A stretch of DNA of 64,000 nt from a bacterium Ga0077546 (GCA_943370275.1 CALRQI020000005.1:1541-65540), one strand, 5' to 3'; numbered from the stretch's first letter, positions 41,738 through 52,682 are shown. The notes: generated from the letters alone by a model not told the origin. Program-made: numbers and translations.

Positions 41738-43441
41738 TTACTTCGGGTCTTTACTGTGACGCTCATAAACGTTATAGCGATAATTCCAATCGGCAAATTC
41801 TTTAGCACCGACGCAGCGTGAGTGATAGCGGGCCTCGCCCTGGCATTCATATTCAGCCAAAATTCGACCAATAATGCCAGCCTTTTCTAAACCATCGAAG
41901 GTCTGACCGCCTTCAACCACAATTACACCCGGTCGATTTCTATCAATATCGCTGCGCAACCGATCGAACATCATTTTCTTCGTGGCAGCAATCCAACCAA
42001 AGGGCTTGCCGACCATGTGATCCGCTAAATTATGAGCCTCGATATTTGCCAATGAGCTAAAAGCCTCAGTACTGATGAAATAGCCAGCAATTGGTTTCTC
42101 TGCCAGAGTATAGAGAGGAAAACCAGGCAGCAGTCGGCCATTGAGAATCATAATCGAATCGCCAGGCTGACAATATTTAGGAAAAACATCAGCCAATTCA
42201 ATATAAGTTGGATCGATCGCATTTGGCCCTGTCAAACAATTAACGTTATCACGGCGCTGCATTATCTCAAGAGAAATTAGAGTCAAGATAGCAATAGAAC
42301 AGGCAACCGCAAGAGAGACTGACTGCACCCTAGGCAGGCGACTATAGGAGAGCTTAGGATAACGTCGAGAGATGCTAGAGAAGAAACTACTCTCAAGCAA
42401 ATATAAAAACTGCACAGAAAAGCACATGCAAGTAGCCCAAATCACTAGCAAGATGTCGCTACTCAAGCCGCTCATGCCCATTTGATAGAGAACAAAGCCG
42501 GCCATCATCAATGCCATAATAGGTCGCAATGAAGGCAGACGATTAACAATACCAAAGCTGACAATGGCTGCTGCCGTGCAGGCATAAATCACATCACGAC
42601 GGTCAGGGGTGGCGCCCAGGCCAAAATAAGCAATTTGATCTAAATAGTAGCTGGTAATTTTAAGAGGAATGATCCAATCGAAAAGCTCTTTGAGAGCAGC
42701 TTGATTGAGCTGCAACAAATAAGACCAGGAGAGGAGAAATGAGATTAAAAGCCAAAAGAACTCATCTGCAACTGAGTTTGCTTTACCAAGTAAACGGAGA
42801 CTAAGAAATTCTGCCGCCTCAATTGTAATGGGCACGATTATAAACAGCGGATCTAGAGAAGCAGCAAAACCAGCAAGAATTCCAGCGAAAAAGCCAGGCC
42901 AGTGATTACTAGTTTTGCTCAAACTAACGCCAGGCGAAAGCCAGGCAGTGAGACGCAAGAAAAAGTATGGGCTTAGCAGCAAGCTAAAGATATGCTGAGC
43001 GCAACCATAAGAGAAACCCATAGCAAAATTAGCTATCGAAAAGCCAATCAGGGCAAACCACAATTGCATTTGTCTGCGCTGCTCTAACCTGCTGGTGACA
43101 ATTATATAGATACAAAGAGCAAACGAAAGCGTCGCCAGTAGTGACACTTCAACAAATGAAGCTAAAGCAATGGCATTGAAAGGGAGCACAGCAGCGCTGC
43201 TGTGGGCTGAAAGCAACTGAGCCAACAAAACAGCTGGCATACGCAAGAAAACAAGAGTGAGTGGTGCATCAAAATAGAAATCACGAAAGGGAACTTGACC
43301 ATGAAGCATGCGATTGGCCGCTTCTATTTCGTAACAGATCGAACCAGCAAGATCATCCAGAAAAAAGGCTCGAACAACTATGCTCAGGGCAAAAACAGCC
43401 AGAGCAGTGCAAACTACAAATAAATTTTGCTTACTAGTCAT
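41738..43441 (-). CDS. GT-C-like polytopic membrane protein with a C-terminal globular domain, paralog 1
   Basis: 567 aa with about 11 TM. The first-loop motif is HGQVPFRDFYFDAPL. It overlaps the upstream gene stop by 8 nt. Confidence 0.85.
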   Translation of the reverse strand: MTSKQNLFVVCTALAVFALSIVVRAFFLDDLAGSICYEIEAANRMLHGQVPFRDFYFDAPLTLVFLRMPAVLLAQLLSAHSSAAVLPFNAIALASFVEVSLLATLSFALCIYIIVTSRLEQRRQMQLWFALIGFSIANFAMGFSYGCAQHIFSLLLSPYFFLRLTAWLSPGVSLSKTSNHWPGFFAGILAGFAASLDPLFIIVPITIEAAEFLSLRLLGKANSVADEFFWLLISFLLSWSYLLQLNQAALKELFDWIIPLKITSYYLDQIAYFGLGATPDRRDVIYACTAAAIVSFGIVNRLPSLRPIMALMMAGFVLYQMGMSGLSSDILLVIWATCMCFSVQFLYLLESSFFSSISRRYPKLSYSRLPRVQSVSLAVACSIAILTLISLEIMQRRDNVNCLTGPNAIDPTYIELADVFPKYCQPGDSIMILNGRLLPGFPLYTLAEKPIAGYFISTEAFSSLANIEAHNLADHMVGKPFGWIAATKKMMFDRLRSDIDRNRPGVIVVEGGQTFDGLEKAGIIGRILAEYECQGEARYHSRCVGAKEFADWNYRYNVYERHSKDPK

Positions 43442-45113
43442 TACGCTTATAAATACTTATGCCGCCTTTCTCATCTATTTTTTTGTAGTTAGCCATGCGC
43501 GTATTGATAAAATCAACATCGCCGAAAACCCAACTCATAGGATTGTCTTGAATGTAAATTAGCTTCGGTCTATTTTTCTCAATATCCTCTGTATACCAGT
43601 CAATAACTTGCTTCTTGTAGCCCTTAAATTTCTCCTTGGCCCTGGCATCAAGCTCCGGTTTATCAATAATGAACGACAATATGGGCAGCATCATGCCGTG
43701 CAAAAATCGCGAAGCGGCCTTTCTTTCAGTCTGCAAAAGCACTGGATAGCCAGGAGCCATTGAGGCACAAATAAACAGAACAAAGTCGCCCTTACTGCTA
43801 TGTTCTAAGCACGAGCCAACAAACCAGTCCATGTCATCTACAGAGCCCATACCCCATTCAGGGTATCCGACCTGCACCAGGGGGTACGGTTGTCGGTTGC
43901 GCATCTCTTCGTCTTCACCTACTTGCACCGAATTCAAATAGATGCCACCACCAATAACAGAAGCAGCCGCCACAGCAACCGCCATGCCTGTCAATTTAGG
44001 TCGCCCCAAACCAATTGCCTTAAGCGGCAATAGCTGGTAGAGCAAAGCAGCTTCTACGGCAAGTGCCATGGTGTTTCCCATGCGCACAGCAATCATGTGG
44101 CAAGACCAGGCCTGACCGGCAAGAACAAAAACCACCGCCGACATAAACGAAAAAGCACAAAGTGCCAAAGGCAAGCTCGACGACTGAGCCAAGACTACAG
44201 CTAACAAAGAGGCAAGGGCTAAAAGAAGAAAATCAATTCGCCAAAAACTGGCCATATTGAATATGGGCGAAGTGACGTAATACTCGTAGCCTTCTTTATA
44301 GATTGGTACAACAAAATTGAAAAAGGCTCTTAGTTCTTGGGCTGGCAGGAAAATAAAATGCACAAGATAGACAGCAATCACCGCTACTGCAGCCAACACC
44401 TCAGGCGCAATGAAAGGTTTAAACTGACGCGTGCGCAGCCACCAAACAATTTCCGGTGCAGTAGCCATCAGCATAAAGTGCGGCTTAAGCGCAAGACCAA
44501 TACCGGCCAAAACTCCAGCAGCAATGCAAGGCCAACGACCAAGCTTAACGCCTTGCCAGCGCAAATAACGCAGCAAGAGAAAAGGAGCATAAGTAATGCA
44601 GAAAATATGTTCTCTTTGGCCAAAGTCAAGGCGCTGAATCTGATTGAAATAAGCAAAACCAATCAAGGCACATACACCGAGCACAAGTGCCCCAGTGCGC
44701 CTTGCTGCCACAAGAACCCAAAGCACAATAAAGCAACTAAGAAATTCAAGTAGAGAAACATAAATGGAAAAACTCAGTGGTATCGGCATATGGCACAGGC
44801 GAGAAAGCAACACAGGCAAAACCTGAATATAGATAGCCAAAGGCGGATTAACATCGAACATGTCTACATAAGGCACTTTGCCTTCAAGGAGAAGCTGGGC
44901 CATATGAACAAACAGACCTTGATCACAAAAGATCAACATCGGATGAGCAAACCACCAGCGTAGAGCCATAACAAGAAGCACAAGAGTGAGGGAGCCAGCC
45001 GCCAACAAGACCACAATCGACAAATCGCTAGGCATGGGCTGACCGTCTACATTCTTGTAATCGTGCAGCTCTTGCTGTTCAAGCTCATTTGCTTCTTCGC
45101 CTAGCAAGGCCAT
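43434..45113 (-). CDS. GT-C-like polytopic membrane protein with a C-terminal globular domain, paralog 2
   Basis: The loop motif is CDQGLFVHMAQLLLEGKVPYVDMFDVNPPL. The ATG at 45113 lies 1 nt after the upstream stop. The ORF track extension to 45206 would overlap the upstream gene by 92 nt. Confidence 0.85.
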   Translation of the reverse strand: MALLGEEANELEQQELHDYKNVDGQPMPSDLSIVVLLAAGSLTLVLLVMALRWWFAHPMLIFCDQGLFVHMAQLLLEGKVPYVDMFDVNPPLAIYIQVLPVLLSRLCHMPIPLSFSIYVSLLEFLSCFIVLWVLVAARRTGALVLGVCALIGFAYFNQIQRLDFGQREHIFCITYAPFLLLRYLRWQGVKLGRWPCIAAGVLAGIGLALKPHFMLMATAPEIVWWLRTRQFKPFIAPEVLAAVAVIAVYLVHFIFLPAQELRAFFNFVVPIYKEGYEYYVTSPIFNMASFWRIDFLLLALASLLAVVLAQSSSLPLALCAFSFMSAVVFVLAGQAWSCHMIAVRMGNTMALAVEAALLYQLLPLKAIGLGRPKLTGMAVAVAAASVIGGGIYLNSVQVGEDEEMRNRQPYPLVQVGYPEWGMGSVDDMDWFVGSCLEHSSKGDFVLFICASMAPGYPVLLQTERKAASRFLHGMMLPILSFIIDKPELDARAKEKFKGYKKQVIDWYTEDIEKNRPKLIYIQDNPMSWVFGDVDFINTRMANYKKIDEKGGISIYKRND

Positions 45114-45114
45114 G

Positions 45115-45708
45115 CTAAGCACTCCAAAGGTCGATATTGTATTGCTTGGTACAGATGGCATCCATAACAATGTCATCGGCAGCCATCTGTTTTTTGTAGG
45201 CCGCAATATCCTCAGGCCGACCTTGAAGTTCAGGCGAAACCAGGCAGAGCTTGAAATTAGCTTCTTTCAAGCGTTTATAGTCTTTCTTATCTAGAGACAA
45301 ACGAGTGAAGCAATCAATCCAAACCCACTCAACTAAGCCCGAAAAGTTGAGAACCGTTTCTATGGTCTCAAACTCTGAATAACGCAGAGCAATGCGCTTC
45401 TCTCCGCGCTTAGTCAGATTGACAATCATGGGCAGGGATGAATCAAGGAAGAAATAGTTCTCGATTTTATACTTCTGCATCAAAGGCAAAATCGTCTCTT
45501 CTATGCGCTCGCTTTTAACATTCAAAATCAGAGTGCCATGATTGTTGTACTCAGCGAAGAAAGGCTCGGCATCCTCACCATCCTTAAAGGGGTCATGCTG
45601 TAAAATCAAACGTTCACCACGGTCACGCAAATCAATCTCGCAACCAAACTGAGCCGGAACCTGACGCAATGCTTCTAGTTGATTAATGCGATGGGCAATG
45701 AAGTGCAT
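45115..45708 (-). CDS. GDPD / PLC-like phosphodiesterase superfamily protein
   Basis: 197 aa. IAHRIN...GCEIDLRDRGERLILQHDP matches the HR...E.D...HD catalytic layout of glycerophosphodiester phosphodiesterases. Confidence 0.7.
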   Translation of the reverse strand: MHFIAHRINQLEALRQVPAQFGCEIDLRDRGERLILQHDPFKDGEDAEPFFAEYNNHGTLILNVKSERIEETILPLMQKYKIENYFFLDSSLPMIVNLTKRGEKRIALRYSEFETIETVLNFSGLVEWVWIDCFTRLSLDKKDYKRLKEANFKLCLVSPELQGRPEDIAAYKKQMAADDIVMDAICTKQYNIDLWSA

Positions 45709-46452
45709 TCAAATTTCCTTTGCTGAGTGACTAAGCGAGTGCTTCAGTTTGATACTAAAATCGATGGTGCGTTTGATGAATTTTACTTTCGACTTAAAGC
45801 CTGTGTTCCACTTAGACTCGCCGTGAATGCGGGGAGGAAAGACCACGTCAAAGCGGACGATATTGAGATTCTTTTGCCTGGCCATGTAATAGGCATACAG
45901 ATCTAAAGCAAAGTCATTGGGCGGCTGAGTCCACGACTGAAAGAAAGAACGATGAAAAATATTAGGCTGAGCATTGATATCCCAGAGATTGGTGCCCATG
46001 AAACAAGTCTCGAATAGACTCATGCCGCCGGTAAAAAACGAGTCAGATAGAGGTCTACCACGGCGCAAACCCTTAACGTAAATATCTTCAGGGTAGTTGG
46101 CTTGCCTAATTAGATCAATGGCTTTGACAATATCACTGGGATCGGTCTGCATATCGGCGTGAGTCCAACCGATATAATCACTCTGGCAAGCACGCAAACC
46201 TTCCAGTATGCCAAAGCCATAACCTTGATTAACAGGCACTCTTAGTGACCGGGCAAAAGAAAACTGTGGCAGCTGACTGGCTAAAGTAGCTGGGCTATCA
46301 TCAGTAGAGCCGTTATCAACTAAAAGTAGCTCAACTTGCGAACTATCATTGGCAGTGATTTTCTCAAAACGACTGAGAATCAGCGGAATATTTTTCGACT
46401 CGTTATAACATGGCATTACCACAGTAAAGGTCTGATTCTTTGAATTTGTCAT
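45709..46452 (-). CDS. Glycosyltransferase family 2, Dpm1/ArnC-like (polyprenyl-phosphate sugar synthase type)
   Basis: VVMPCYNESKNI, LLVDNGSTDDS and HADMQTDP motifs. No C-terminal TM. Confidence 0.88.
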   Translation of the reverse strand: MTNSKNQTFTVVMPCYNESKNIPLILSRFEKITANDSSQVELLLVDNGSTDDSPATLASQLPQFSFARSLRVPVNQGYGFGILEGLRACQSDYIGWTHADMQTDPSDIVKAIDLIRQANYPEDIYVKGLRRGRPLSDSFFTGGMSLFETCFMGTNLWDINAQPNIFHRSFFQSWTQPPNDFALDLYAYYMARQKNLNIVRFDVVFPPRIHGESKWNTGFKSKVKFIKRTIDFSIKLKHSLSHSAKEI

Positions 46453-48119
46453 GCCTGAATCTTGCTGACCTCCTTCTTATACTCATGCCATGAGCACTTA
46501 CGGAAAAACGACTGCCAGTAAGCAAAGGTCTTAAGATCATTGGGTATGCCAAATGAGATGTAGTCGATTACTTCAAAGACCACGCATTTGAGGCCAGAAT
46601 CAGCTAAGACACCAACCATACTATCAACATAAAACTCGCCGTTGACACGAATATCTTGTTCAAGCATCACCTTCATTGCTTGATCAAAATATTTTGCCTT
46701 GCGAAAGAAAAAGGCACCAACAATGGCATGATCAGCGCGCGGATTATCTGATATTGCCTTCTTCACCGAAACACCAGTGATAACAGGAAATTCAACTGGG
46801 GCACTCTCATCTGCAGGCGCAACTTTAAGCCAACCAAACATCTGCGGGTTTCGTTCACTAGATGGATGATTACGGAAACTAAAAGCAGCCATATCGATAG
46901 ATTGATCTGCCATCAGGGCTTGCCACTTACTGTGGTCGTAAACAATACCGTTATCGCAGGCACCAATCAACAAACTGGCCTCAGGGTCAATAGCTGGATC
47001 AGCTCCATCAATGCCGAGCTTACAAGAAGAAGCCTGGCCGGCAGTGATACCATCGATAGCTACCACACTAACATTAGGAAACTGCTCAGTCAGTATCCCT
47101 TTCAATTGCGAATTATCAAGGTGCTCTTTCTGTGCGACGAAGACATAACGAGTCGCTGGCGGCAAATTATCGCAAGCAAGCACCACCATGGGCTTGTTGG
47201 AAACAGGAATTAGTGGCTTGGGCGTTAAATAGCCCACATCGGCAAAACGAGAGCCTTTGCCCGCCATTGGAATAAGACAGGTGTTAACTAGAAGAGAATC
47301 TTTGGCTGTGGCCGGGCGATTCTTTCGCCCTGTGCGCGGCTCGTCTTCTGAACCTTCATGGGCCAGTCTTGTGAAATAGTCAGACCAGTGTTGATACTCT
47401 TCGAGATCACGAGGAGTGCCCCATTGCAGCATGTAGTCAACTTCGTAGACTGAGACACGAAGACCATCGGCCACCATGAGGTTGTAAATCATACTGACAT
47501 AGTATTCACCATTGACCTGAATATCTTGCTTCATCAACTCTTGGAAGTAGTGCTTGACGTACTCTCCCCGGGCAAAATAATACGTACCGTTTGAGGCAAA
47601 CTCAGCCATGCGATTATCAGTAAATGGCTTCTTCTCTTGAATCGCTTCCAACCAAAGGTTCTTCTCTTTGATAAAGGCATAGTTATCAGTGCCAAGCATA
47701 TGCGGATGAAAGTTGCGGTAAGCTGGAACTGAGCCGGCAGCTTTTCGACTACGCGTCTTAGCTAAGAAGTCAGAGTAGTGCCAATAGGAATAGAAATCAC
47801 AATAGTTGACGATTGTCTCTTCGCTCGAATCTATTCGATCTAAACACTGCCCAACGGCATAAACAGGACCTTTGCGATGGGTATTAATGGTAATTATTTC
47901 AGCCTGCGGAGCAATACGATTGAGTACCTCTGCTAAATTTGTCTCAGTCATATGCTCGCAGTTGCAGACAAAAGTAAACTTATCGGCAGGAGAAAACATT
48001 GAGACCACATGCTCAATCATCGGCTTGCCGTCTACTTCGATTAATGGTTTAGGCAGCTTGTAGCCAGCTTTTATAAAGCGCTCACCAAGTCCAGACATAG
48101 GAATTACAACATGGGTCAT
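46449..48119 (-). CDS. Tandem double sugar-phosphate nucleotidyltransferase
   Basis: 556 aa with two homologous halves. Each starts with a nucleotidyltransferase signature (VIPMSGLGERFIKAGYKLPKPLIEVDGKPMIEH; LIPMAGKGSRFADVGYLTPKPLIPVSNKPMVV). Each ends with the VNGEYYV...(10-11 aa)...(D)GL motif. Confidence 0.85.
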   Translation of the reverse strand: MTHVVIPMSGLGERFIKAGYKLPKPLIEVDGKPMIEHVVSMFSPADKFTFVCNCEHMTETNLAEVLNRIAPQAEIITINTHRKGPVYAVGQCLDRIDSSEETIVNYCDFYSYWHYSDFLAKTRSRKAAGSVPAYRNFHPHMLGTDNYAFIKEKNLWLEAIQEKKPFTDNRMAEFASNGTYYFARGEYVKHYFQELMKQDIQVNGEYYVSMIYNLMVADGLRVSVYEVDYMLQWGTPRDLEEYQHWSDYFTRLAHEGSEDEPRTGRKNRPATAKDSLLVNTCLIPMAGKGSRFADVGYLTPKPLIPVSNKPMVVLACDNLPPATRYVFVAQKEHLDNSQLKGILTEQFPNVSVVAIDGITAGQASSCKLGIDGADPAIDPEASLLIGACDNGIVYDHSKWQALMADQSIDMAAFSFRNHPSSERNPQMFGWLKVAPADESAPVEFPVITGVSVKKAISDNPRADHAIVGAFFFRKAKYFDQAMKVMLEQDIRVNGEFYVDSMVGVLADSGLKCVVFEVIDYISFGIPNDLKTFAYWQSFFRKCSWHEYKKEVSKIQA

Positions 48120-49252
48120 AGGCTCTGCCTGTATTTCTCAGCTTCCCAATTGCTCAAATAATCGACTTCTTCTTGGGCCAGATAGGTCATGTCATAAAGC
48201 TCCCCACCCATTTGTAGCATGACGTGGGAGCGCAAGACTTCTTCACTTTCTCGACACTTGCGCAAACTCTGCCCGAGAAGCAAAATATGCTCGCCCGAAA
48301 TGATCACCTTAGGCGGATGGCCAAACTTCTGCAAATAATCAGCCACAGATTGCACCGCTGAGGCACTATCAAAGTCAGCCAGAGCCAATCCACTAGCACC
48401 ACAGTAAACCAGTTGATCGGGCGTGGCACATGGGGCCAGCAAATAGGCGGAATTGCGCCTCAGGGCATCTTGGAGAATATGGTCATCACTTAAATAGGCT
48501 AACCACTTGGTGCCACAAACTTGATTAACGAGAGCAGAGGCAAAATTAACTAGTTTATAGCGATAAAGGTTGAAAGCCAGCTCGTTGGCCAGTTTGTCTA
48601 CCACTTCATTGGTAATCTGCATCACCACTTGCTTATTGGCACCAGCCACAATCAGGCCATGGTTCTCTAGAAATACAATGGCTAGACTGGCCTTATCAGT
48701 GCTAGCAGGTTGCCAGTTCTTCTCTCTGAGCTGCTGCTGAAGAGCCACAGCTAAGGCTGGCCCTGGAGTTTTATAAGAAACAAGAAAGAGTGAATCTTGA
48801 TACTGCGGAAACTCACTAGCAAAAATATCTGTCACTATCTTCTGCCAATTCTTGCGACAAACCAGGGCAGCCACAGCTATTGGATGGGTGTGAAGAGTAT
48901 ATTTTCCCAGTAAGCAATGCAGGAGCGCTTCAATCGATGGCCGTCTACTACTAGAAGCAACTGGCGTAAGAGCAGCAGCCACAGCGACTTTGGCCTGGGC
49001 CTCAAGCGCTTCAACTGAAAGATTAGCATCACAAGCAGACAAGAACTGCAGCAAAGGAGGCCATTGCAACAAGCAAAAATCAGCCTCAGAGCCGACTTCG
49101 CTCAGTGCCATACCAGAAGCTTTAACAAAAATGCGGCCATCGTCGAGCTTGACTGATGTGTTACCGCCACCGGCTTGTACCAGATCGAAACGCTCTCCAG
49201 CAAAACGCGATACTTCTATGAGATCTGCTATTTCAGTTTCTATGGCGTTCAT
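48116..49252 (-). CDS. Class II aldolase/adducin-fold protein (aldolase or sugar-phosphate epimerase-like)
   Basis: VQAGGGNTSVKLDDGRIFVKASG and LHTHPIAV motifs. ATGA overlaps at both ends. Confidence 0.75.
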   Translation of the reverse strand: MNAIETEIADLIEVSRFAGERFDLVQAGGGNTSVKLDDGRIFVKASGMALSEVGSEADFCLLQWPPLLQFLSACDANLSVEALEAQAKVAVAAALTPVASSSRRPSIEALLHCLLGKYTLHTHPIAVAALVCRKNWQKIVTDIFASEFPQYQDSLFLVSYKTPGPALAVALQQQLREKNWQPASTDKASLAIVFLENHGLIVAGANKQVVMQITNEVVDKLANELAFNLYRYKLVNFASALVNQVCGTKWLAYLSDDHILQDALRRNSAYLLAPCATPDQLVYCGASGLALADFDSASAVQSVADYLQKFGHPPKVIISGEHILLLGQSLRKCRESEEVLRSHVMLQMGGELYDMTYLAQEEVDYLSNWEAEKYRQSL

Positions 49253-49941
49253 TTTTTTACCAACTCGAGCAACTGAAGAAAATCATCGAAAATAGTAACA
49301 CCGCGCATGTCGGCAATGGTCTGAATACTTCCAGTTTCAGTATTGAGCCAATAGCAGTCAAGACCAAGTTTGCGGGCACCTTCGATATCACGCTCAAAGC
49401 TATCACCAATCATACAAAGAGCGGTCAAGGGCAAGTCGAGCTTCTGCGCAGCCAATTCAAATATGCGCCGGTGCGGTTTTTCGTGGCCGCTCTCTTCACT
49501 GGTAACAATAGCCTGCAAATAAGTGGCAATTTTCAAGTGAGCAATTTTGTCAAACTGAACCCTTGCTGTTAAATCAGTGACTATAGCAATTGGCAAACCT
49601 ACCGACTGAAGAAAAGCAAGACAGCCAGGACGCAGCTGCATATTGTCAAAAAACGTTCGCCAATAGAGATCTTCAGCAGCTCCTGCTAATAAATGAGGGA
49701 AGCGGCCAAAGGCCTCGGCTATGCCTTGAAAATAAAGCAATCTACTGTGGGAAGAAGCCAAGCCGTGCAGACTCTTATTGACTCGACTGCGGCAAGCAAC
49801 ATACTGAGCCTCTACCGCTTCAAGCCCCTGCTCAAGCTCTGCAGCCAGCCACTGCAAAGCAGCAGCAATAGCCGGTTCGTGAGCCTGTTTATAGTCATAG
49901 ACTGTATTATCGAGATCAAGGAGAATGCCTTTAGGCTTCAT
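49249..49941 (-). CDS. HAD-superfamily hydrolase (phosphatase)
   Basis: Motif I LLDLDNTVYDY, motif II VTDLT, motif IV GDSFERDIEGA. Confidence 0.88.
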   Translation of the reverse strand: MKPKGILLDLDNTVYDYKQAHEPAIAAALQWLAAELEQGLEAVEAQYVACRSRVNKSLHGLASSHSRLLYFQGIAEAFGRFPHLLAGAAEDLYWRTFFDNMQLRPGCLAFLQSVGLPIAIVTDLTARVQFDKIAHLKIATYLQAIVTSEESGHEKPHRRIFELAAQKLDLPLTALCMIGDSFERDIEGARKLGLDCYWLNTETGSIQTIADMRGVTIFDDFLQLLELVKK

Positions 49942-52153
49942 GCATTTCTTCCTTGTCTTTCATCAAGTCGTTGATGATAAGCAAAATAATCAACTGCACA
50001 AAGCCACGCAAATCTTCTGCCCACTCAATTTTATTCTCGACTAACTCTTCTAAATTAGGAATCATGTCACTAGCTAATTTTTGCAATAACGCTGGTGGCA
50101 CTGGTTCTGAGAGAGTCAAATCTTGCTTTGATAGATTCTCGCTGTAGTCCCAATGTAAAAGCAAGCCATTAGCCATAAGCTCTTGCACTAAATCTTCGAG
50201 ATGAATACTTGAACTTAGGGACAACTTGAGCGACAGCTTAGCCTGAGCTGTTAAAGAGCCTTCATCAAGCAAAGCCTGAGGATAATAGCGAATACAGAGA
50301 TCGGCAAACTCTCTCTGGGGAGAAATAAATTTGTCGGCGTCATTTTTTCGGCGATTGATCTGAGCATTAGCCTGCTTCTCGCTATAGCCTCGTTCGCGGT
50401 GATCGCGACTGACTTTCCAAAAAGTCTTAAGCTCTGCTTCTGGATCCATGAAAATTTTCAGATCAATTACTTTTCGCGACTTAGGCAAATAGAAAGTGTG
50501 TAAGCCAGAAAGGACAATAAAATCGTTGGGCTCAATCACCCGAGCGCTTGTAAAGGCACCAGTTGAGTGATCATAGTCAACACGCTCAACACTGCGTCCG
50601 CGCTTCAAATTGAAGAGTGTATCGGCCTGCCTGTGGAGGAAATTGGCTTTTGGATCAAGATGGGTAATGTCTTTTTTCCAATTTTCGTCGTGGCGAGCCC
50701 ATTTATGATCAGCGTCACCTTCAAGCTCAACCACGCGATTCTGCAGTAAGGCCTTTATGTCTTTGAGCAGTGTCGACTTACCAGCACCACTATCTCCACC
50801 AATACCAATGACGATAGCTCTTTCGCGCTTATAAATTGAATTACTGCGCACACCAGTACGATAGCAAAGCACGATATTGGCAAGCAAGGTTGCTTCAAGC
50901 AGAGTAAAGGCCAGAGAAGAAAGGTGCTCGCCAGGAATGCCTAAATTCCAAACATTACCGCAAAACATAATGGCCGGATAATCGAAGTGATGGAAAAAGA
51001 GAAAATAGAAAAGATAGAAGCAAGAAAGGGCCATACCAGCCGGCACAATGCGGCTGTCACGGCGGCTATATTTGATCATGAAAATGCTGAGAAAAGGCAC
51101 AATCCAAACGTACCAGCCGGGCGCAGGCACAATTAGAGCGACAAATAAAGCAAAGACAATATTGAGGAAGGCATCTAGTAAGTCAAGATTGATTTTGGGA
51201 TAGAGGGCAAAGCGCACATAGGTGCTGCACACCGCCAGAACTGGCAAGAAAATATGCATTGAGCCAATGCTAATGTAAGACTCAAAGATCTGGCTCTGCT
51301 TGGGATTATGCAAAACTATGGCCTGAAAACCGGCCGAAAACAAAAAGGGATAAACCCAGAAGATAAGCATGAGAAGCGAACAGACGAGATAGAGCCCGGC
51401 CATCTTGGGCTTCTGATTGCGATAGATATAAGTGATACACAGGGGCAGGGCTGCCGCCACGTGCGACTTTGTCGCCAGAGCCAAACCAAAAAGTAGTGCC
51501 GATTTAAGCGTGTCGTTTTTGCGCAAGAAATAAACAGCAGAAAACAGTATCGCCGTTGGTATCAAATCTAGCTGTGAGTGAATGTAGCAGGCATAAAATA
51601 TGATTGGCGAAAGAAAGTAATACCAGAATACTTTGTTGACTCTTGCTGGAAACATTTTGACCAAGAGGAAGGCAATCAAAATATCGCTAAGAAGAGTGGG
51701 CAATTTCATAAAGAAATTGACCAAATAGGTATTTTCGAAACCAACAAGTTTCAGAGGCAGACAAAAGAAAGCGACAATATAAAGCATCAGCGGCTGATAA
51801 GGAAATTGATCACGCTGTGTGGTGGTTTGAAAATAGAAATCCCAAGGGTTGTCAAAGTGACTGATAAAGTGCTGAACAAACGGCACAAATAGCTGGTTCA
51901 TATAACCAGACGAAAAAAGCACCATCAGCAAAACCTTGGCAAAAACCACAAGCGCAAAAGCGCTGAGGCCAATTGGGGCCACAGACTTGAGAGCAGCGCC
52001 TGCTGTGGCGCCGTCGAGCTTATCTGCTGGATTCAAAATCGGTTTTGCTTTTGCTTCCATCAACCCTGCTTGATCACTTTCTATTTTGATATGCCCGCTC
52101 TTTGGCGGCGGACCACTACTTACAACCACATCAAAACAATCGACTGCGGCCAA
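49931..52153 (-). CDS. Fusion protein: GT-C/DUF2029-like polytopic membrane domain + C-terminal uridine kinase/phosphoribulokinase-family P-loop kinase
   Basis: 740 aa with about 12 TM in the first 440 aa (loop motif RDQFPYQPLMLYI). This is followed by AIVIGIGGDSGAGKSTLLKDI and a Udk/PRK-like body. The track uses a TTG start (52153); an alternative ATG is at 52060. Confidence 0.85.
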   Translation of the reverse strand: MAAVDCFDVVVSSGPPPKSGHIKIESDQAGLMEAKAKPILNPADKLDGATAGAALKSVAPIGLSAFALVVFAKVLLMVLFSSGYMNQLFVPFVQHFISHFDNPWDFYFQTTTQRDQFPYQPLMLYIVAFFCLPLKLVGFENTYLVNFFMKLPTLLSDILIAFLLVKMFPARVNKVFWYYFLSPIIFYACYIHSQLDLIPTAILFSAVYFLRKNDTLKSALLFGLALATKSHVAAALPLCITYIYRNQKPKMAGLYLVCSLLMLIFWVYPFLFSAGFQAIVLHNPKQSQIFESYISIGSMHIFLPVLAVCSTYVRFALYPKINLDLLDAFLNIVFALFVALIVPAPGWYVWIVPFLSIFMIKYSRRDSRIVPAGMALSCFYLFYFLFFHHFDYPAIMFCGNVWNLGIPGEHLSSLAFTLLEATLLANIVLCYRTGVRSNSIYKRERAIVIGIGGDSGAGKSTLLKDIKALLQNRVVELEGDADHKWARHDENWKKDITHLDPKANFLHRQADTLFNLKRGRSVERVDYDHSTGAFTSARVIEPNDFIVLSGLHTFYLPKSRKVIDLKIFMDPEAELKTFWKVSRDHRERGYSEKQANAQINRRKNDADKFISPQREFADLCIRYYPQALLDEGSLTAQAKLSLKLSLSSSIHLEDLVQELMANGLLLHWDYSENLSKQDLTLSEPVPPALLQKLASDMIPNLEELVENKIEWAEDLRGFVQLIILLIINDLMKDKEEMHEA

Positions 52154-52202: not shown

Positions 52203-52682
52203 CTACTTAGAGCCAGTGCCTTCTGGATAGTAAAGGAAATCGCAGCGGAATGGCGCAGGAGCTTCTTTGAAATCAGCAGGCAAAGGAGCAAAGGGAGACT
52301 GTGTTTTGACCGAGTCAACAGTTCTCTCAATAGCCCGTTGACCACCGGTGGCACTGACCGTATGAACATCGGTGCAAAGGCCTGGTCGAGTAATTAGAAA
52401 TTCAACGGCTACGCTGTAGCGGTGGTCAGACTTAAGTGGCCGCCAACCCTCTGCCAGGCGGTTCTGCAAATCGATGCAGTAGCGCTGCTGTTCAGGGGTA
52501 TAGCTGTGTTCGCTCACTGGCGAAACCATGACTTTGTGAGGACCAACTGGCTTGCTCGGCTCGGCACTAGTTGTAGTTGTGGTAGTGGTGGTCTTGTCTC
52601 CAACTTTATCGGTCTTACTGCATCCAGTCACTATGACAGCCGCAGGGATAAGCAATGAACACAAGAGAACCGACAGGCGCAT
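52203..52682 (-). CDS. Lipoprotein with a poly-Thr linker and a TonB/TolA C-terminal-like domain
   Basis: Lipobox VTGC, a TTTTTTTT linker and a C-terminal ...FAPLPADF... pattern. The family call is tentative. Confidence 0.65.
   Translation of the reverse strand: MRLSVLLCSLLIPAAVIVTGCSKTDKVGDKTTTTTTTTSAEPSKPVGPHKVMVSPVSEHSYTPEQQRYCIDLQNRLAEGWRPLKSDHRYSVAVEFLITRPGLCTDVHTVSATGGQRAIERTVDSVKTQSPFAPLPADFKEAPAPFRCDFLYYPEGTGSK

Follow-up and report, generated by a model that had tools for sequence, protein, structure and literature searches.

The gene described here lies in the window, by which is meant the whole stretch of 64,000 nucleotides that was analysed (positions 1541-65540 of CALRQI020000005.1, assembly GCA_943370275.1) from bacterium Ga0077546, a member of the Candidatus Obscuribacterales. 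It encodes a polytopic membrane domain, apparently of the GT-C glycosyltransferase fold, fused to a P-loop kinase domain of the phosphoribulokinase (PRK) type. Positions 49931..52153 form an unbroken open reading frame (ORF) on the minus strand of the window, the plus-strand translation being full of stops, and its product contains both motifs, RDQFPYQPLMLYI and AIVIGIGGDSGAGKSTLL, that an earlier sequence-only reading had quoted for this interval without stating a strand. The longest form of the ORF has 740 amino acids (aa) and opens at a TTG at 52153. The probable start was set at the internal ATG at 52060 (MEAKAKP...) because 31 homologues align from there, and the product is therefore likely to have 709 aa; residue numbers refer to this form unless the 740-aa form is named. 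The AlphaFold2 (AF2) model of the whole fusion had a predicted local distance difference test score (pLDDT) of 87.7 and a predicted template modelling score (pTM) of 0.85. The gene and its two domains are as follows:

49931..52060, minus strand: fusion gene, probably 709 aa from ATG 52060 (ORF and alignment with 31 homologues; AF2 model)
50825..52060, minus strand: predicted GT-C-fold membrane domain, aa 1-412 (domain model and Foldseek)
49934..50824, minus strand: predicted phosphoribulokinase-type P-loop kinase domain, aa 413-709, including the PRK C-terminal beta-sheet region (Pfam, NCBIfam, PDB and Foldseek)

The fusion is real and was obligate in the sample examined. A word-indexed search returned at least 289 full-length homologues at 41-97% identity, and an exhaustive search of 50%-identity cluster representatives gave 759 matches below 1e-30, the top 150 of which were nearly all 660-840 aa long and matched over both domains, down to 32% identity. 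Scanning one genome per species with two short peptide patterns placed the fusion in at least 157 species genomes, among whose lineages many are uncultured; isolates that carry it include Paenibacillus, Virgibacillus, Clostridium sp. LS, Allohahella and Velocimicrobium. The sequence-only reading had regarded such a fusion as abnormal, an expectation that the domain architectures overturn, revealing a large, widely conserved family (more than 150 clusters, and the species genomes counted above). The further possibility that the gene is an artefact, a frameshift or an assembly join of two separate genes, can be practically dismissed: independent assemblies at 91-99% identity (L009-L021, with the window fusion at 99% identity to L009) hold the same continuous ORF, all 80 loci fetched from named genomes of many phyla, isolates and the complete Virgibacillus chromosome among them, match across both domains, and the sequence of the domain junction, RSNSIYKR, is conserved. 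No full-length fusion homologue was found in the phage collection.

Genuine split (kinase-only) forms were sought and none was found in the sample. Two candidates were rejected. The protein P0269 is a fragment at a contig end, and P0285, a 309-aa 'phosphoribulokinase' of Allohahella marinimesophila, is an internal-start miscall within a continuous 687-aa fusion ORF (L070, 9971-12034). Kinase-only database entries in the fusion family should be distrusted.

The kinase half belongs to the PRK branch of its family. Pfam PRK (PF00485) matches aa 448-627 of the 740-aa form with an E-value of 4.6e-36 and 125 bits against a gathering cut-off of 22, and all 32 aligned homologues match it as well. The top NCBIfam model is the cyanobacterial-type phosphoribulokinase (PRK07429, NF005655; 193 bits), and the best match in a PDB sequence search is 9qkn, a 321-aa 'cyanobacteria specific PRK' (E 2.5e-34), with the canonical PRKs 6gve, 6hzk and 6kev at about 1e-32. 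Foldseek with the whole-protein model agrees, ranking 9qko and 9qkn best (TMt 0.78) and canonical PRKs next; matches to PRK structures reached a TMt of 0.74-0.80 over about 305 columns, the C-terminal sheet included. The closest solved relatives, 9QKN, 9QKO and 9QKP, were released in April 2026, and their function may bear on the fusion family; no paper on these 'cyanobacteria specific PRK' structures was found in literature searches.

Source annotations of the homologues mostly read 'uridine kinase', and PF00485 spans both enzymes, which are the points in favour of a uridine or cytidine kinase that would make nucleotide locally for the adjacent nucleotidyltransferase (described below). This reading is considered very improbable. 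The udk models reach 72 bits (NF004018, cut-off 180) and 70 bits (TIGR00235, cut-off 220), both below their cut-offs and far from the score of the PRK model, while uridine kinases appear in the PDB sequence search only at 1e-12. A PRK-type C-terminal region of about 110 aa is present, and PRK and PRK-like structures align over about 305-350 Foldseek columns versus about 180-190 for Udk. Additionally, the genome has a second, short PF00485 match elsewhere (a 234-aa open frame, 30.9 bits). The database name 'uridine kinase' therefore appears to be wrong for the fusion. The sequence-only reading had described the C-terminal part as a Udk/PRK-like body; its family assignment and the PRK half of that description hold in the hidden Markov model, PDB and Foldseek comparisons, and the Udk half does not.

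Residue conservation points the same way. The Walker A motif, GIGGDSGAGKST, is invariant in 32 diverse family members, and the redox-regulatory P-loop cysteine of plant-type PRK is replaced by alanine (GDSGAGKST versus GDSGCGKST). Active-site positions were mapped through the PDB alignment to 6gve (T. elongatus PRK, Te) and read against roles given in the literature. D449 and H498 align with Te Asp43 and Te His91, which are the catalytic dyad (Asp57 and His105 of CrPRK; PMC9978339), while R456, K549, D553 and R571 align with the active-site residues Te Arg50, Te Lys142, Te Asp146 and Te Arg164, the two arginines and the lysine being basic residues of the sugar-phosphate-binding loops (PMC6800369). 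All six are invariant across the 32 aligned sequences. RuBisCO was not found in the source genome (6.29 Mb, 94% complete), and because of this absence the kinase is taken to be no Calvin-cycle enzyme. Judged by its residues and predicted fold, the domain is thus, to all appearances, a structurally complete PRK without a Calvin cycle to serve.

The membrane half has no such family to name it, as the window's own N-terminal 410 or so aa gave no Pfam or NCBIfam match. Foldseek with the whole-protein model returned only kinase matches in the top 50, and residues 1-412 were therefore modelled alone, giving a polytopic helical bundle with a pLDDT of 87.4. The top 10 PDB matches to this model are all GT-C-fold proteins (E 1e-4 to 3e-2; template modelling score, TM, 0.46-0.64), comprising GPI mannosyltransferase I (GPI-MT-I; 9wno, TM 0.64), ArnT, ALG3, PIG-U, PimE, ALG6 and ALG9, and most of them are enzymes that use polyprenyl-phosphate-monosaccharide donors. 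Among 32 homologues, the weak Pfam matches were confined to the GT-C clan, namely ALG3 (five), GT87 (five), EpsG (one) and PIG-U (one), mostly near or below cut-offs, and precomputed matches of homologues to PF26314 (MptA_B_family) are also weak. The GT-C fold assignment of the modelled aa 1-412 can be considered sound, in line with the GT-C-like multi-membrane-span domain proposed from sequence at the outset.

Helix positions and charge distribution in the model suggest about 12 transmembrane (TM) helices with both termini in the cytoplasm. This topology would put the kinase in the cytoplasm, where ATP is; the FSS...NPW...FPY loop, K198, NPKQ and HSQLD, the last of these within a broken helix, would lie either in the membrane interior or at its outer surface. 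The invariant polar residues of the domain are K119, D126, Q163 and D165 (both in HSQLDLIP), K198, Q255 (in NPKQ) and N291. In most characterised GT-C enzymes an invariant acidic residue stands in the first periplasmic loop. The sequence-only reading had pointed to an early loop motif of the GT-C/DUF2029 kind, and the motif is indeed present, with FPY at residues 86-88; the aspartate before FPY is not invariant in the family and therefore cannot be taken as a catalytic residue. The invariant acidic residues, D126 and D165, sit outside the first loop. Catalytic competence of the modelled GT-C domain is thus plausible, not established.

Downstream of the fusion, the genes on the minus strand follow one another down to 41738 either end to end or with overlaps of 4-11 nt, and the nearest same-strand gene upstream ends at 52203. 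The fusion is plausibly the first gene of the operon, as the sequence-only reading had it, and the operon is translationally coupled. A consensus promoter and terminator scan of the window did no better than shuffled sequence. The partner genes are:

49249..49941, minus strand: HAD-IA phosphatase, 230 aa, candidate ribulose-1,5-bisphosphate (RuBP) 5-phosphatase (Pfam Hydrolase/HAD_2; NF053830)
48116..49252, minus strand: class II aldolase-fold protein, 378 aa (Pfam Aldolase_II, E 8e-15)
46449..48119, minus strand: double sugar-phosphate nucleotidyltransferase, 556 aa (Pfam NTP_transf_3 and NTP_transferase; PDB 4evw, E 5e-13)
45709..46452, minus strand: short soluble GT2 of the ArnC/PpgS/GtrB type, 247 aa, candidate polyprenyl-phosphate sugar synthase (Pfam Glycos_transf_2)
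45115..45708, minus strand: PI-PLC/GDPD-like protein, 197 aa (motif set IAHR...E.D.RD...H(D/E)PF)
41738..45206, minus strand: two paralogous polytopic membrane proteins, 590 and 567 aa, candidate acceptor-specific transferases (ORFs; mutual match E about 1e-17)

The start of the HAD gene overlaps the stop of the fusion by 11 nt, and the HAD/aldolase, aldolase/nucleotidyltransferase and nucleotidyltransferase/GT2 pairs overlap by 4 nt each. Together with the fusion, the first five of these partners make up a recurring six-gene cassette. Its gene order is identical in Paenibacillus, Nitrospirae and Omnitrophica, with the partners at 35-61% identity each across phyla, and the catalytic motifs of the partners are conserved in 61-70 orthologues. 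Cassette statistics were taken from the 47 loci in which 8 kb or more of sequence flank the fusion on either side: the nucleotidyltransferase was present in 44, the HAD protein, the aldolase-fold protein and the GT2 in 41 each, and the PLC-like protein in 40, with all five partners (GtrA not counted) in 34 and a GtrA in 19. The cassette occurs in Obscuribacterales, Gastranaerophilales, Paenibacillus, Virgibacillus, gut Clostridia/Lachnospiraceae, Leptospiraceae, Omnitrophota, Nitrospirae, Babeliales and Chlamydiae, and on plasmids of E. coli and Azospirillum. Orphan fusion paralogues at about 50% identity, with no cassette genes nearby, exist in some Obscuribacterales (L029 9905-12130, L030 and L031), and one Obscuribacterales genome with such a paralogue also has a full cassette (L027).

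The partners are described best by their family matches and motifs. For the HAD protein of the window the best NCBIfam model is NF053830, the haloarchaeal ribulose-1,5-bisphosphate 5-phosphatase (146 bits, below the equivalog cut-off of 330). All 19 HAD orthologues tested match this model below its cut-off, with the best E-value of any NCBIfam family, 1.6e-54, the top rank being that of the window protein and not one read for each orthologue; the HAD motifs DxDxT and GD...D are conserved in the orthologues. The aldolase-fold protein has a C-terminal extension of about 150 aa and intact Zn-site residues (PSIE, LHTHP and ENHG), motifs that are kept in 70 orthologues. The nucleotidyltransferase is an internal duplication in which the GxGxRF...KP nucleotide-binding loop is kept in both modules across 61 orthologues, suggesting that there may be two active sites; conservation is far stronger in its N-terminal module than in the C-terminal one. 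The nearest NCBIfam models of the GT2 are ArnC and PpgS, all below cut-offs, and its identity to orthologues of three other phyla is 53-61%. Its presence in 41 of the 47 loci is the contextual hint that the GT-C domain may use a donor linked to polyprenyl phosphate.

The GT2 and the 197-aa protein, which shares 54-59% identity across phyla, are the two most conserved members of the cassette. The motifs of the latter are kept in 64 orthologues; it had no Pfam, NCBIfam or PDB sequence match, and a PDB profile search with its family gave nothing significant. RefSeq names its E. coli and Azospirillum orthologues 'phosphatidylinositol-specific phospholipase C/glycerophosphodiester phosphodiesterase family protein'. 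A protein of this type is an unusual component for a sugar-donor pathway.

The candidate RuBP 5-phosphatase bears directly on what the kinase might phosphorylate. The sequence-only reading had offered two possibilities, one of which was that the kinase acts on a membrane-bound or lipid-linked substrate shown to it by the membrane domain, such as a polyprenol, a polyprenyl-phosphate sugar or a lipid-linked glycan. The tethering of the kinase to a lipid-handling domain speaks for this, as does the confident single-chain model, whose pTM suggests that the domains pack together. It is nevertheless improbable, and finds no support in the active site, where all catalytic and sugar-phosphate-binding residues of PRK are invariant; the next gene is most like a RuBP 5-phosphatase; and in the predicted topology the kinase is cytoplasmic, with the conserved polar residues of the GT-C domain lying in the membrane or towards the periplasm. 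Known polyprenol kinases are members of the DgkA and dolichol-kinase families and fall outside the PRK family. The other possibility, that a phosphorylated soluble precursor is channelled or supplied at the membrane, fits the conserved HAD, class II aldolase and nucleotidyltransferase neighbours and the likeness of the HAD protein to RuBP 5-phosphatase.

The evidence leans toward a cassette that turns ribulose 5-phosphate into a lipid-carried sugar for decoration of the cell surface, with the kinase acting first and the GT-C domain transferring the sugar outside. The kinase domain would convert ribulose 5-phosphate and ATP to RuBP as the committed step of a dedicated sugar-donor pathway, and the HAD protein would remove the 5-phosphate to leave ribulose 1-phosphate (Ru1P), which is able to cyclise. 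The aldolase-fold protein may then epimerise or otherwise rearrange the ketose 1-phosphate, the double nucleotidyltransferase would provide nucleotide activation, with the PI-PLC/GDPD-like protein acting on a phosphodiester intermediate, and the GT2 would place the sugar on polyprenyl phosphate. After flipping, the GT-C domain of the fusion, the variable polytopic neighbours or both would attach the sugar, on the outer face, to a glycan of the envelope. Fusing the first cytoplasmic enzyme to the membrane enzyme could fix their stoichiometry, make RuBP at the membrane and couple supply to donor use, although no part of the model is less certain than this purpose of the fusion. A precedent for the early steps comes from haloarchaea, in which a phosphatase specific for RuBP yields cyclised Ru1P and lies in an operon with a class II aldolase that acts on Ru1P (PMC9700705).

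Several points weigh against this reading. On the chemical side, C1 of a ketose is not anomeric, and a route from Ru1P to an NDP-sugar (NDP, nucleoside diphosphate) and on to the GT2 yields by itself no glycosyl donor; extra chemistry is therefore assumed for the aldolase-like and PLC-like proteins. The activities, the substrates and products, the order of the steps between RuBP and the activated nucleotide sugar, and the identity of the sugar are deduced from sequence and gene context, and the topology from helix positions and charges instead of coordinates. The kinase score of 193 bits lies below the NF005655 cut-off of 236, with profile positions 4-223 of 326 matched. The flipping step has no assigned protein, given that GtrA, found in a minority of cassettes elsewhere, is absent here: no match to the GtrA family (PF04138) was found anywhere in the 94%-complete source genome.

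The remaining objections concern the GT-C domain, and they also favour a different assignment of roles, in which the kinase acts as proposed and the fused domain serves as a membrane anchor, regulates the kinase by binding or sensing the lipid-linked donor, or supplies the missing flippase, while the variable polytopic neighbours (the 590- and 567-aa proteins here) transfer the sugar to the acceptor in the manner of GtrC. No aspartate or glutamate is invariant in the first periplasmic loop (TM1-TM2), where both the aspartate before FPY and that of FDNPW vary. PIG-U, which has the GT-C fold and no transferase activity, appears three times among the top 10 Foldseek matches. Across phyla the membrane domain shows about the same conservation as the kinase (43-47% identity) and the donor-synthesis enzymes, a pattern not expected of a transferase specific for its acceptor. 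In 55 of 77 loci a further, variable polytopic protein is encoded, which could itself be the transferase. These neighbours fall into many unrelated clusters and families from locus to locus, which recalls Gtr systems, where conserved components make the donor and transfer is left to a variable GtrC; those of the window match neighbours in Obscuribacterales alone and none of their counterparts in other cassettes. The lack of GtrA in the source genome and in 28 of the 47 cassettes would suit a flippase role.

This assignment is nonetheless the less expected one, unlikely though to be reckoned with. The closest structures include the catalytic GT-C enzymes GPI-MT-I, ArnT, ALG3 and PimE, and the seven invariant polar residues lie in or at the edge of the membrane, as in an active site; because of these two observations the transferase role was ranked first. 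The extra polytopic proteins have no detectable GT-C signature, and some are ordinary cluster genes (one a Wzx-type Polysacc_synt protein); the 590- and 567-aa proteins had no Pfam or NCBIfam match, and an hhalign comparison of the membrane domain of the fusion with them was not significant. In 22 of the 77 loci no extra polytopic protein lies nearby, and the orphan paralogues (L029-L031) retain both domains. The fused membrane domain may accordingly be a universal transferase, a donor-binding regulator of the kinase or a flippase.

A more specific product can be put forward, speculatively and with a rather low likelihood: the cassette could be the missing biosynthetic route to ketopentofuranose side chains, xylulofuranose or ribulofuranose, by way of a phosphate 'walk'. 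The PRK and HAD activities would shift the phosphate from C5 to C1, letting the ring close, and the first nucleotidyltransferase module would form an NDP-1-pentulose. The PI-PLC/GDPD-like enzyme would convert this to a 1,2-cyclic phosphate, opened to the anomeric 2-phosphate, from which the second nucleotidyltransferase module would make a true NDP-2-ketofuranose donor, with the aldolase-fold enzyme setting the stereochemistry as ribulose or xylulose. In that case the fusion would link the opening reaction in the cytoplasm to consumption of the lipid-linked product in the periplasm, possibly as a means of feedback control. The genes for the xylulofuranose precursor of E. coli O95/O97 are reported as unknown (PMC7685785), and the xylulofuranose transferases of Yersinia O:10 are unassigned (PMC11380512).

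Compared with known systems, the proposed lipid-carried sugar pathway reads as a form of three-component (Gtr/Arn-type) glycosylation in which a PRK opens the donor pathway and this first enzyme is fused to a putative late membrane enzyme. Like the three-component systems (GtrA/GtrB/GtrC; ArnC/ArnEF/ArnT; PpgS/Rv3632/Rv3779; CsbB/GtcA/YfhO), the cassette has a short ArnC/PpgS-type GT2, a putative GT-C-fold membrane protein and, in many loci, a member of the GtrA family, and it lies in or beside glycan gene clusters, also on plasmids. Unlike those systems, which use ordinary nucleotide sugars, it has its own four- or five-enzyme donor pathway opened by a PRK, which is joined to the GT-C-fold protein; the source genome lacks GtrA, and a second, variable polytopic protein is usual. 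The logic is the same as in NDP-heptose activation, where HldE/HddA kinase makes a bisphosphate, the HAD phosphatase GmhB removes the distal phosphate and the HldE/HddC nucleotidyltransferase activates the remainder. The substrates set the two apart: the heptose kinase adds its phosphate to an aldose at C1, the anomeric carbon, and PRK to a ketose at C1, which is not anomeric, so that the cassette would need further steps. The kinase families differ as well (ribokinase/GHMP versus PRK). The kinase domain itself resembles plant and cyanobacterial PRK, 9QKN/9QKO/9QKP included, in its whole fold with C-terminal sheet, Walker A motif, Asp/His dyad and Arg/Lys substrate residues, and differs in its fusion to a membrane domain, the missing P-loop cysteine, the genome lacking RuBisCO and the sub-cut-off NCBIfam score.

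The nearest published system, of different chemistry, is the three-component pentofuranose pathway based on phosphoribosyl pyrophosphate (PRPP), with polyprenyl phosphoribose synthase, MATE flippase and GT136 (Kelly et al. 2024, PMC11127046). The cassette shares with it, and with mycobacterial decaprenylphosphoryl arabinose (DPA)/arabinan synthesis, the putative making of a lipid-linked five-carbon donor from a pentose-phosphate metabolite and GT-C transfer outside the cytoplasm; in the PRPP-based systems, too, a HAD phosphatase takes off a 5-phosphate, and auxiliary epimerases diversify the sugar (PMC11127046). In those systems a UbiA-type synthase works with PRPP directly on the lipid and no nucleotide sugar is involved, whereas the cassette encodes a kinase, nucleotidyltransferases and a GT2 but no enzyme that depends on PRPP. 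The haloarchaeal non-carboxylating pentose bisphosphate pathway (Sato et al. 2022, PMC9700705) likewise has an adjacent HAD and class II aldolase-fold pair and a proposed use of RuBP without RuBisCO. It is catabolic, with RuBP made from ribose 1,5-bisphosphate and a FucA-like aldolase, whereas the cassette sits in a glycan-building context and its aldolase-fold protein is larger and most like the N-terminal domain of RhaD-type bifunctional enzymes.

The fusion represents a large, unstudied family; no description of it or of the six-gene cassette was found in the full-text literature searches. If the proposed role in surface decoration is true, bacteria that fix no CO2 have taken over a Calvin-cycle enzyme as a domain tethered to the membrane, where it opens a pathway to envelope glycans, and RuBP, otherwise almost only the substrate of RuBisCO, is a committed glycan precursor in non-autotrophs. 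The fusion would be a rare case of a first and a late pathway enzyme, on opposite sides of a membrane, in one polypeptide, and the product of the cassette would be a widespread, so far undescribed surface sugar. A ketose product would be lost during the acid treatment that is standard in polysaccharide work-up, a possible reason why it has gone undescribed, and the origin of xylulofuranose and similar residues becomes directly testable.

Two plasmid-borne cassettes show the genes in other surroundings. A 33-kb E. coli IncR plasmid from human stool carries the whole cassette next to IS26 (L007, NZ_CP145712.1, 6022-14984) in a permuted order of nucleotidyltransferase, GtrA, GT2, PLC-like protein, fusion, HAD and aldolase, followed by a 586-aa membrane protein. 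An identical copy is present in an E. coli isolate from a bullfrog, and the cassette occurs in only 2 of 5,426 complete E. coli genomes, on small plasmids that are nearly identical to each other. On an Azospirillum brasilense plasmid (L089, NZ_CP032350.1, 5480-12864), the cassette stands directly beside an O-antigen-type cluster with genes for a Wzm/Wzt-type ABC transporter, gmd, a GDP-fucose-synthase-like reductase and GT1 enzymes, a setting that suggests decoration of a 6-deoxyhexan O antigen.

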